From: Nostoc sp. FACHB-110
GTDB lineage: Bacteria > Cyanobacteriota > Cyanobacteriia > Cyanobacteriales > Nostocaceae
NCBI RefSeq assembly: GCF_014697425.1
Contig: NZ_JACJRU010000042.1
Span: 36,693-68,692, forward strand
Direction: 5' to 3'
Length of the DNA stretch: 32,000 nucleotides
This document shows positions 29,867 to 31,905 of the stretch, in pieces; position 1 is the stretch's first letter, and each line of letters begins with the position of its first letter. Both the position numbers and the translations under genes were made by a program. Under the pieces are notes generated by a model, which had not been told where the DNA came from, made no database searches, and worked only from the letters and a program-made list of their open reading frames with translations.

Positions 29867-30322
29867 ATGGAACCAATTACCGTAGGTGCGATCGCGCTTT
29901 TAGCTTTAATAGGTAATAAATTTGTTGATTGGTCAACAGAAAAAGCTTTGGATGCAATTTATGACCAAGCCAAGCAAGTAATTCATGATAAATCACCCGC
30001 AACAGCCGCAGCGTTAGAAACCGCAGCCACACAAGCAGCTTTACCGCCAGGAGAGCGAGAATATATTGGTGAAGCTGTATTAGTAGAAGAAGTCAAAAAA
30101 GCAGCAGAGGCATATCCAGAAATTCAAGAAGCCGTCGAAGCATTAGGTAATCAAGTTAACACGGCTGCACAAGCTAACCCTGAACTGAAGAAGGCTCTTG
30201 CCGAGTTAACCGCAGCTATTAAAGAGCAAAGTTCTACAACCTTGGTAAAACCACAAGGTATTATCACTACGGGTGGTGAGACTAAAGTCAAGGGTTCCAC
30301 ATTCAACTTTGGCAGTAAATGA
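29867..30322 (+). CDS. small helical protein with hydrophobic N-terminal helix and C-terminal 22-aa motif shared with the downstream NLR (Bell/HeLo-like effector candidate)
   Basis: MEPITVGAIALLALIGNKF..., an Ala/Glu-rich body, and the C-terminus QGIITTGGETKVKGSTFNFGSK. ATGA overlap with the next gene. Confidence 0.8.
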   Translation: MEPITVGAIALLALIGNKFVDWSTEKALDAIYDQAKQVIHDKSPATAAALETAATQAALPPGEREYIGEAVLVEEVKKAAEAYPEIQEAVEALGNQVNTAAQANPELKKALAELTAAIKEQSSTTLVKPQGIITTGGETKVKGSTFNFGSK

Positions 30323-31905
30323 CCGATAACAACCTGCAAGGAATAATCACTCAGGGTGGAAAGGTTATTGTTAAAGATTCAACATTTAATTTTGGGTCAT
30401 CACAACAGACTTCTCCACCGAATATTCCCAATAATTTAATTCGCAAAGGCGCAGTTAACTTTGTTGGGCGAGAAAATGAACTCGCCAACATCCATCACCA
30501 ATTGCAGCAGTCGGGTAAAGTGGCAATTTCGGCGGTGGCTGGGATGGGTGGTGTCGGTAAAACGGAATTAGCAACCCAGTATGCACTAAAACATGAAGCT
30601 GATTATCCTGGCGGTATCTGCTGGCTGAATGGGAGAGAATCAGAGTTAGCCGCTAGTATTGTGCAATTTTATGGGTTGTACATCGCTCAAGAAATACTAC
30701 AAGAATTAGGCGGAAAACTGCTGAACCCCCAAGAACAAGCGCGGTGGTGTTGGCAACATTGGCAACCATCTGAGGGTTTGGTGTTAGTAGTTTTCGATGA
30801 TGTCACTAATTTAGAGCATCTGCAAGAAATACAGCCGCCAGCGAACCGCTTTCGCGTACTCATCACCACCCGTTTACGCAACCTCAACCCCAATTTTGTA
30901 CGGGAAATTTCTTTAGATGTACTCCCAGAAAATAAAGCGTTAGAACTGCTAACAGCTTTTGTAGGTGAAAAGCGAATACAACGGGAAGAAACAGCCGCTA
31001 AACAACTATGTCAATGGCTGGGATATTTACCCTTGGGGTTGGAATTAGTCGGACAGTATTTAGCCGAAGATCCAGATTTATCTTTAGCAGAAATGCTTGA
31101 AAGGCTGGAGGTGCAACGACTAGAGGATGAAGCCCTGGAACGGAGACAGGCAACTCTGAGTGCAGCACAGCTAGGAGTAAAAGCCGCCTTTGAATTAAGC
31201 TGGCGAGAACTTGGTGAAAAAACCCAGCTTGTAGGTGCGTTATTGAGTTTGTTTGCCCCTGATGTCATTCCTTGGCAATTGGTAGAATCTACCAGTGAAT
31301 TGTTAAATTGGGCAGAGGCAGATGTTAACGAAGCCAAAAAGCAACTTTACAAGCGTCATCTCATTCAAAGATTAGAAGATAAAAACGCTTGCTATCAAAT
31401 TCATCCGTTAATTCGGGAGTTTCTCAAAGGGAAATTAGGGAAAATTAATACTTTTACAGGCACAGAGGAGTTAGGGGTTGAGTTCAAACAAGTTTTTGTA
31501 GCGGCAATAATAGCAAAAGTAAAAGAAATTCCTCAAGCTATCACTTTAGAATTTATCGCCTCAGTGCAGGATACTATTCCTCATCTTCAAGAAGTTGCTG
31601 AAAATTTAATTGATGTGGTGAGGGATGAAGATTTAATCTGGGTGTTTGTTGGTTTGGGTAAATTTTATGAAGGGCAAGGTTTGTATGTGTTAGCAGAACC
31701 TTGGTATGTGCAGTGTTTATCGGCAATAAAAACCCGTTTGGGAGAAGAACATCCTTACGTTGCCACCAGCCTGAACAACTTGGCATTACTCTATAATTCC
31801 CAAGGAAGATACAGCGAAGCCGAACCCTTGTTGCTCCAAGCTTTAGAAATGAGAAAACGCCTGCTGGGAGAAGAACATCCCGACGTTGCCCTTATACCAA
31901 TTTAA
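30319..31905 (+). CDS. NB-ARC (STAND) NTPase with N-terminal short motif and C-terminal TPR repeats; probably 3'-truncated
   Basis: N-terminus LQGIITQGGKVIVKDSTFNFGSS. P-loop GMGGVGKT (30541-30564), LVLVVFDDV, RVLITTR, GYLPLGLEL, IHPL. TPR_12-like EEHPYVATSLNNLALLYNSQGRYSEAEPLLLQALEMRKRLLGEEHPDVA, then off-consensus LIPI-stop. Confidence 0.9.
   Translation: MTDNNLQGIITQGGKVIVKDSTFNFGSSQQTSPPNIPNNLIRKGAVNFVGRENELANIHHQLQQSGKVAISAVAGMGGVGKTELATQYALKHEADYPGGICWLNGRESELAASIVQFYGLYIAQEILQELGGKLLNPQEQARWCWQHWQPSEGLVLVVFDDVTNLEHLQEIQPPANRFRVLITTRLRNLNPNFVREISLDVLPENKALELLTAFVGEKRIQREETAAKQLCQWLGYLPLGLELVGQYLAEDPDLSLAEMLERLEVQRLEDEALERRQATLSAAQLGVKAAFELSWRELGEKTQLVGALLSLFAPDVIPWQLVESTSELLNWAEADVNEAKKQLYKRHLIQRLEDKNACYQIHPLIREFLKGKLGKINTFTGTEELGVEFKQVFVAAIIAKVKEIPQAITLEFIASVQDTIPHLQEVAENLIDVVRDEDLIWVFVGLGKFYEGQGLYVLAEPWYVQCLSAIKTRLGEEHPYVATSLNNLALLYNSQGRYSEAEPLLLQALEMRKRLLGEEHPDVALIPI

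Follow-up and report, generated by a model that had tools for sequence, protein, structure and literature searches.

The 32,000-nt stretch of Nostoc sp. FACHB-110 DNA analysed here, referred to below as the window, carries near its right-hand end two adjacent open reading frames (ORFs), ORF1 and ORF2. From the DNA letters, the original prediction had proposed that they encode a small effector and an NLR-type sensor, joined in an amyloid-signalling cell-death module by a motif common to the C-terminus of the first protein and the N-terminus of the second. The parts of this gene pair, and the element that adjoins it, are as follows.

29867..30322, plus strand: ORF1, putative Bell-type effector gene, 151 amino acids (aa), assigned from the ORF call, homologues and the Bell-side listing of an orthologue
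29867..29923, plus strand: N-terminal 'MEPIT' hydrophobic helix, ORF1 residues 1-19, MEPITVGAIALLALIGNKF, assigned from conservation and Kyte-Doolittle hydropathy
30251..30319, plus strand: effector-side BASS7 motif, ORF1 residues 129-151, PQGIITTGGETKVKGSTFNFGSK, assigned by its match to the Nostoc sp. 106C BASS7 entry
30319..31905, plus strand: ORF2, NLR-type (STAND) sensor gene, 528 aa, a truncated ORF
30334..30402, plus strand: NLR-side BASS7 motif, ORF2 residues 6-28, LQGIITQGGKVIVKDSTFNFGSS, assigned from the Table S2 entry OUL32058.1 (see below)
30472..31125, plus strand: NB-ARC domain, ORF2 residues 52-269, with Walker A GMGGVGKT and Walker B LVLVVFDDV (Pfam PF00931, E 1.9e-16)
31627..31890, plus strand: remaining TPR repeats, ORF2 residues 437-524, cut within a TPR_10 unit (Pfam TPR_12/TPR_10)
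31894..32000 (about 107 bases), minus strand: end of an IS630-family insertion sequence (IS), 3' end of the transposase gene, 90-96% identical to Nostoc plasmids

The ORF calls place both genes where they had been predicted, on the same strand and with a 4-bp ATGA overlap. Given this overlap, ORF1 and ORF2 are probably co-transcribed and translationally coupled; a promoter scan revealed no sigma-70-like site upstream of ORF1. The peptides quoted in the original prediction, MEPITVGAIALLALIGNKF, QGIITTGGETKVKGSTFNFGSK and LQGIITQGGKVIVKDSTFNFGSS together with GMGGVGKT, LVLVVFDDV, RVLITTR, GYLPLGLEL and IHPL, are all encoded. In ORF2, the BASS7 motif is followed by a Pro/Asn linker, the NB-ARC domain and the first two or so TPR units, and Pfam bore out the predicted NB-ARC and TPR architecture (TPR_12, E 5.9e-23). 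NCBIfam gave only partial matches, to TPR-containing STAND proteins, and ORF2 matched no PADLOC model at E <= 0.01, those of the catalogued anti-phage STAND systems (Avs/bNACHT) included. No frameshift or internal stop was found in ORF1 or in the motif, linker and NB-ARC parts of ORF2, and these are therefore intact.

The predicted common motif was recovered by alignment of ORF1 residues 130-150 (QGIITTGGETKVKGSTFNFGS) with ORF2 residues 7-27 (QGIITQGGKVIVKDSTFNFGS), in which 16 of the 21 positions are identical. The BLOSUM62 local score is 78, as compared with a mean of 35 and a maximum of 70 for shuffled ORF1, and none of 5000 shuffles reached 78. The similarity is thus far beyond chance. 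A six-frame regular-expression scan found this type of motif at only these two places in the window. The effector-side copy occupies the last ~22 residues of ORF1, is rich in G, T, N and Q, and has alternating hydrophobic residues.

Gene pairs of this kind have been described previously. The Bell domain and ten classes of BASS motif, shared between Bell C-termini and the N-termini of adjacent NLRs, were reported by Dyrka et al. (2020, bioRxiv 10.1101/2020.01.06.895854), who found BASS7-10 to be specific to cyanobacteria and 91% of Bell/NLR pairs to be collinear and 42% overlapping. The Bell domain is given there as a helical region of ~100 aa with an N-terminal hydrophobic helix that has an acidic residue at position 2-3. 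Table S2 of the same work lists OUL32057.1 and OUL32058.1 from Nostoc sp. 106C as the Bell-side and NLR-side members of a BASS7 pair, with the motifs QGVITTGGQTTVKGSTFNFGSK and SNENLQGIITQGGKVIVQDSTFNFGSSQQ. This pair corresponds to locus L001/P0002 among the homologous loci found here (denoted L with a number). Gene order, the 4-bp overlap, the 151-aa length of the Bell-side protein and a QGIIT-type motif on both sides are the same as in the window, and both proteins are 83% identical to those of the window, the NB-ARC/TPR partner over 524 aa. The two loci differ in strain and in the length of the NLR, which has 790 aa in 106C but in the window is interrupted by an IS630 element beyond residue 524. 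The window motif differs from the nlr_15 entry of Nostoc sp. 106C in Table S2 at 3 of 22 positions on the effector side and at 1 of 23 on the NLR side. On these grounds of gene order and protein identity, the window pair is assigned as orthologous to a BASS7 Bell/NLR pair that has been published as a computational prediction.

A further listed BASS7 pair, from Nostoc 'Peltigera membranacea cyanobiont' 232 (L009), belongs to the same effector family, its effector being 52% identical to ORF1. This pair and that of Calothrix sp. PCC 6303 are of the common WQGIN type; the consensus of the BASS7 profiles all_12 and nlr_15 is about NENWQGINIKGGxNTIxxNTFNF. They agree with the window pair in motif class and length, in the core QGI..GG....(I/V)....(F/L)NF, and in the combination of Bell and NB-ARC/TPR proteins. 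The window motif differs from theirs at six to seven positions, on both partners together, the changes being W to P or L, INIK to IIT(T/Q), and I(S/H)NP to V(K/Q)(G/D)S. Only one QGIIT-type pair appears in the 2020 Table S2, and QGIIT is thus the rarer subtype (Dyrka et al. 2020).

Two other systems share the general arrangement. In Bab/Agp of E. coli ECOR25 (bioRxiv 10.1101/2024.11.07.622273), the adjacent sensor likewise carries the effector motif at its N-terminus, but that sensor has a TPR-GreA/B-C-PIN (TGP) architecture instead of an NB-ARC STAND one, and the motif is BASS11 instead of BASS7. The Babybell domain of Bab is about 80 aa long, as compared with about 120 aa in the window effector, and no match between the two was obtained in sequence or fold searches. 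In HET-S/NWD2 of Podospora anserina and the other fungal HeLo/Hell-NLR amyloid pairs, too, effector and NLR are encoded side by side, the C-terminal motif of the effector recurs at the N-terminus of the NLR, and the effector starts with a membrane-targeting helix. HET-S/NWD2, in contrast, is eukaryotic, with a NACHT/WD sensor and an HRAM motif in two pseudo-repeats, and homology of the window effector to the globular domain of HET-S was not found (no Pfam HeLo match and no Foldseek match).

A single ORF1 sequence searched against 5.8 billion proteins gave 26 homologues, and a profile gave 148. Most of the named ones are called 'hypothetical', and all those whose source names an organism come from filamentous cyanobacteria. 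The protein search found no protein identical to ORF1, the best match being 90%, and an exact-sequence look-up of encoding contigs gave none either. A scan of 185,579 species genomes gave 76 loci with ORF1 homologues, mostly in Nostocales, some in filamentous cyanobacteria of the Oscillatoriales type, and one in a genome annotated as Chloroflexaceae. A match of ORF1 to an unrelated family, which the original prediction had named as a reason to abandon it, was not found in Pfam or NCBIfam. Alignment of the family showed a conserved N-terminus, M-[ED]-P-[IL]-T-x-G-A-I-A, a helical body conserved to about residue 120, and a C-terminal tail of ~25 residues that falls into several unrelated sequence classes. 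Substitutions are very rare at M1, P3, T5 and A8; G7 and I9 show none in the alignment of 27 sequences (A1) and are at least 90% conserved in that of 88 sequences (A4).

Co-variation of the tail with its partner had been suggested with the original prediction as a check. Each effector tail was therefore scored against a three-frame translation of the downstream region of every locus, for 71 loci. The summed cognate score was 4024, as compared with 2457 +/- 125 for permuted partners (z = 12.5), and none of 20000 permutations reached the cognate value, indicating strong co-variation. Four unrelated motif classes occur on the one conserved effector domain, each mirrored on its own downstream gene: WQGIN-type BASS7 (L002-L007), QGIIT-type BASS7 (the window and L001), a …KIG…GG…-type motif (L073, L074 and L076), and a motif with a QVG core, which we read as RHIM-like (L050 and L051). 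In the 33 motif-matched pairs (32 loci and the window), the gene next downstream encodes a STAND NTPase, with NB-ARC in 29, NACHT in 4 and TPR in 24.

ORF1 begins with MEPITVGAIALL, has an acidic residue at position 2 (E2), and combines a conserved hydrophobic N-terminal helix (Kyte-Doolittle mean over 15 residues 1.6-2.0) with a predicted helical bundle, as in the Bell domain. Two AlphaFold2 (AF2) models, built from 27 and 88 sequences, were of moderate confidence, with a predicted local distance difference test (pLDDT) of 63 and 66, respectively. They place helices at residues 3-15, 26-42, 44-57, 69-82, 84-103 and 105-124, and leave the tail (123-151) disordered at pLDDT below 50, the motif forming only short strands of low confidence. 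The N-terminal helix is proposed as the membrane-targeting element by analogy with the conserved 'MEPIS'-motif region of Bell, Hell, Bab and Avast2, which is needed for activity (Ibarlosa 2024, bioRxiv 10.1101/2024.11.07.622273). The best PADLOC match of ORF1, to '2TM effector', was marginal (E = 0.0011) and was not accepted as membership. A PF20701 tag recorded for two distant ORF1 homologues could not be reproduced, there being no significant Pfam match in either.

Collinear overlapping genes, a Bell domain, a terminal motif pair and an NLR architecture, albeit with a shortened TPR array, are thus all present. Because the pair is in addition orthologous to listed members, it is assigned to the Bell/BASS7 group, and the locus is probably a two-gene amyloid-signalling cell-death module of the Bell/BASS kind, of the BASS7 class and QGIIT subtype, on a Nostocales chromosome, with its sensor gene disrupted by IS630. 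Published work already covers this type of gene pair, its motif class and the orthologous locus, and experiments in E. coli and in heterologous hosts have demonstrated the mechanism for related classes of motif.

Several observations weigh against this reading. For about 30 of the 71 homologous effectors, no partner motif could be detected within +/-6 kb, and pairing is therefore not universal in the family. No recognised defence island surrounds the pair, the genes of the window being mostly housekeeping ones. ORF1 is not covered by any Pfam, NCBIfam or PADLOC model, Pfam and NCBIfam giving only noise at E >= 0.013, and there was no match to Pfam HeLo or related families at E <= 1. A Foldseek search of the PDB with both AF2 models returned nothing below E = 1.8 (best 1.8-2.0), with Rx-CC appearing only at E ~3 and TM ~0.2, and a profile search of PDB sequences gave no Bab, HeLo or MLKL match. 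A resemblance of ORF1 to the HeLo, Hell, MLKL four-helix bundle, plant coiled-coil or Babybell folds is thus not supported by the models; this negative evidence is weak, since the models are of moderate confidence and Bell folds show extensive topological variation (Ibarlosa et al. 2024, bioRxiv 10.1101/2024.11.07.622273). The likeness to HeLo domains that had been pointed out holds for the N-terminal 'MEPIx' helix but was not confirmed by fold or profile searches. Hence, that ORF1 works like HET-S is plausible, and that it is a HeLo domain is not supported. Finally, no experimental amyloid test of a BASS7 motif and no report of an in vivo role for a cyanobacterial Bell/NLR pair was found in the literature searched.

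The sensor gene is incomplete. The original prediction had 31905 as the end of ORF2, and the ORF does stop there, but this is not the natural end of an NLR gene, since homology to NLRs ceases shortly before it and a match to IS630 lies beyond. Six complete orthologous NLRs are 657-1042 aa long. Residues 1-524 of ORF2 are 78-84% identical to the orthologues, at which point the alignment ends. The DNA remains similar to each of the ten closest loci only as far as 31890-31894, in a TPR_10 unit (after …EEHPDVA), and the orthologues, as seen in the alignment with L001, carry on with many more 126-nt TPR units. The junction between NLR and IS lies at about 31891-31897, and the last four codons of ORF2 (LIPI) and its stop are, as judged from the alignment, derived from the IS junction. 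The best match of the IS end (96%) is on plasmid pNOS3756_1 of Nostoc sp. NIES-3756, where it is annotated as 'IS630 family transposase', and it also matches 12 more cyanobacterial plasmids (ten from Nostoc, one from Calothrix and one from Chroococcidiopsis). The junction had no match in a metagenome scan. The window ends at 32000 inside the IS, and its other end would be needed to place the boundary exactly and to define the duplicated TA target. This interruption did not feature in the original prediction.

What remains of the sensor is a stump of 524 residues with about two TPR units in frame. Because the TPR-coding region is cut, the sensor is probably disabled and the module most likely inactive in this genome, although the effector gene is intact. 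At L018, L020, L022, L026 and L035, the downstream NLR ORFs are also short (184-442 aa) and end in or just after the NB-ARC domain, which suggests frequent decay of the sensor, or else assembly errors in metagenome-assembled genomes.

The truncated module might nevertheless still be active. The effector ORF and the motif, linker and NB-ARC of the NLR are intact, and the NB-ARC stump could oligomerise, be it constitutively and to a small extent or upon some other cue, and seed the effector. Alternatively, other BASS7 NLRs could seed it in trans, which is conceivable as some genomes have several Bell/BASS7 loci with near-identical motifs; for the two loci of Brasilonema sp. CT11 (L008 and L023), cross scores are 78-94, as compared with cognate scores of 72-102. 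This is unlikely, as all six complete close orthologues retain long TPR arrays, and a constitutive seed beside an intact killer should be lethal, as over-expression of Bab/Agp is. The short NLR ORFs elsewhere, some of them in metagenome-assembled genomes, also suggest frequent decay.

In an intact pair of the Bell/BASS7 type, by analogy with HET-S/NWD2, BASS1/BASS3 and Bab/Agp, binding of a ligand by the TPR array would lead to oligomerisation of the NB-ARC domain, and the N-terminal motifs thus clustered would adopt a cross-β fold. This fold would template the same fold in the effector tail, whose refolding would free the N-terminal helix from the helical bundle. The freed helix may then attack the cytoplasmic membrane, resulting in cell death, either as abortive infection or as another form of regulated cell death. 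The original prediction regarded such pairs in cyanobacteria as essentially lacking experimental characterisation, a statement now out of date. Amyloid or prion formation and cross-seeding have been demonstrated for BASS1, BASS3 and BASS11. In heterologous hosts, BASS1 and BASS3 form prions and fibrils, and the motif on the NLR side brings about conversion of that on the Bell side, as seen also for a Nostoc punctiforme BASS3 pair. Bab/Agp confers phage-triggered, motif-dependent abortive infection against phage T5 in E. coli, during which Bab relocalises to the cell periphery and membrane alterations ensue, the N-terminal helix being required (bioRxiv 10.1101/2024.11.07.622273). Among the bacterial pairs in the literature searched, a role in abortive infection has been demonstrated for Bab/Agp only, and Bab is the only effector of such a pair for which membrane damage and killing have been demonstrated.

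Co-variation indicates that the two segments must match and leaves open what structure they take. The motif could accordingly be a specific docking tag that is not amyloid, formed by β-strand augmentation or as a short heteromeric zipper, which would tether sensor to effector one to one with no templated spread of a cross-β fold. The low confidence of the strands predicted for the effector tail is compatible with such a tag, and so is the BASS7 class itself, for which the literature searched held no fibril test. This explanation is nonetheless improbable. The length of the motif, its G/N/Q/T-rich composition, its alternating hydrophobic residues and its terminal position resemble those of the amyloid-forming BASS1, BASS3 and BASS11, and β-breaker mutations abolish the function of Bab/Agp. 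Moreover, motif classes that are interchangeable on one effector domain, including the RHIM-like QVG core, are easier to reconcile with a general self-templating fold than with a tailor-made interface.

At the DNA level, the two motif copies are only 65% identical, as compared with 16 of 23 identical residues in the proteins. Ten of the 16 identical residues are specified by different codons, including AGT and TCA for Ser, and only 11 of the 23 third positions match. The likeness of the copies is therefore maintained by selection on the peptide and not by recent duplication or gene conversion. The copies start only 83 nt apart (30251 and 30334), around the 4-bp gene overlap, as might be expected of a single frameshifted gene with an internal tandem duplication or of a recent event at the gene junction, but this is effectively refuted by the codon usage and by a two-gene organisation that is kept in all close orthologues and persists in many other genomes with the genes 15-346 bp apart and the motif still common to both, each ORF having its own conserved domain.

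Divergence among the closest orthologues is concentrated in particular segments. DNA identity of the window to them is ~0.85 along both genes outside the motifs, and falls to 0.55-0.67 in the two motif-coding segments when compared with the six WQGIN-type loci. As compared with the QGIIT-type L001, it is 0.87-0.97 over most of both motifs. Motif scores are 78 and 107 within a subtype and 54 and 58 across subtypes, and both copies change together between QGIIT and WQGIN. It is possible, although we would give it limited credence on sequence comparison, that QGIIT constitutes a distinct cross-seeding specificity class within BASS7, arising by a concerted switch of 6-7 residues on both partners of a locus that is otherwise ~83% identical, and that the orphan effector of the window may be kept for firing in trans by other BASS7 sensors. 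If so, the subtype pairs (the window and L001 versus L002-L007) would offer natural material for finding out which residues determine the specificity of amyloid templating. The idea that subtype switching insulates paralogous pairs within one genome was also considered and is not generally supported, as Brasilonema sp. CT11 has two loci with near-identical BASS7 motifs.

The homologous loci show two further arrangements. At the loci lacking a matched motif, e.g. L033, L034, L039, L040, L046-L048, L053-L055 and L060-L065, the effectors have amyloid-like C-terminal tails, one class of which reads ...AINAAQTQTIDQRGSTFNI and four of which are of BASS7 type. The next gene downstream at these loci usually encodes an NB-ARC or NACHT protein, but one with no motif at its start. 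At three loci, L023 (6465-7241), L025 (6465-7244) and L031 (6492-7268), in Brasilonema sp. CT11, B. angustatum and Scytonema sp. PCC 10023, the Bell-BASS7 gene is followed, by an ATGA overlap, by a gene for a 258-259-aa protein that is not an NLR. Its N-terminus carries a BASS7 motif, its domain of ~210 aa has no Pfam match, and the gene after it encodes what we read from the translation as pentapeptide repeats, followed by further helical repeats. BASS7 is thus also found on a non-STAND partner.

The remainder of the window includes tgt, cobS, miaE and a gene for a MEKHLA-domain protein, as well as the following features.

4598-7891: cytochrome c oxidase operon
15949-17089, minus strand: XisI/XisH gene pair followed by the gene for a small helix-turn-helix protein
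24364-27435, plus strand: 1023-aa protein whose C-terminal CHAT domain (caspase-like protease) accompanies a long TPR array; its gene lies 2.4 kb upstream of the effector and NLR genes
27646-28548, minus strand: unannotated 300-aa protein, its gene adjoining the nuclease gene
28768-29340, plus strand: 190-aa staphylococcal-nuclease homologue (PADLOC 'SNc+LTD', E 1.6e-12)
29351-29647: 14 copies of a 21-nt unit (AAGGCTCATCCGCGAGTGTCA), between the nuclease gene and the Bell gene

The N-terminus of the TPR-CHAT protein looks hydrophobic and has no BASS-like motif. That of the nuclease homologue is also hydrophobic and ends ...LGSC, which looks like a lipoprotein signal. The nuclease gene occupies the same place beside the orthologous pair in L002 and L007, and the gene for the 300-aa protein does so in L002. 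Diverged arrays of the 21-nt-unit kind are present at the same position in L001, L002 and L007. Reading frames through the array are open on both strands (ORFs of 118 aa and 112 aa), and one frame on the minus strand has no stop in any of the four loci. The array may encode a heptad-repeat protein or be non-coding.

With its sensor gene disrupted by insertion, the copy in Nostoc sp. FACHB-110 is a poor candidate for functional work and serves as an example of module decay; for experiments, an orthologous pair that is still intact, e.g. that of Nostoc sp. 106C, would be a sensible choice. For the family, the analysis adds quantitative, locus-level evidence for co-evolution of the two motif copies, with divergence concentrated in exactly the two motif-coding segments, and shows that the motifs borne by one conserved Bell lineage fall into at least four interchangeable classes, with a matching copy on the partner in each case. 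Of the features found, only the fine-scale concerted switch between subtypes might merit more study.

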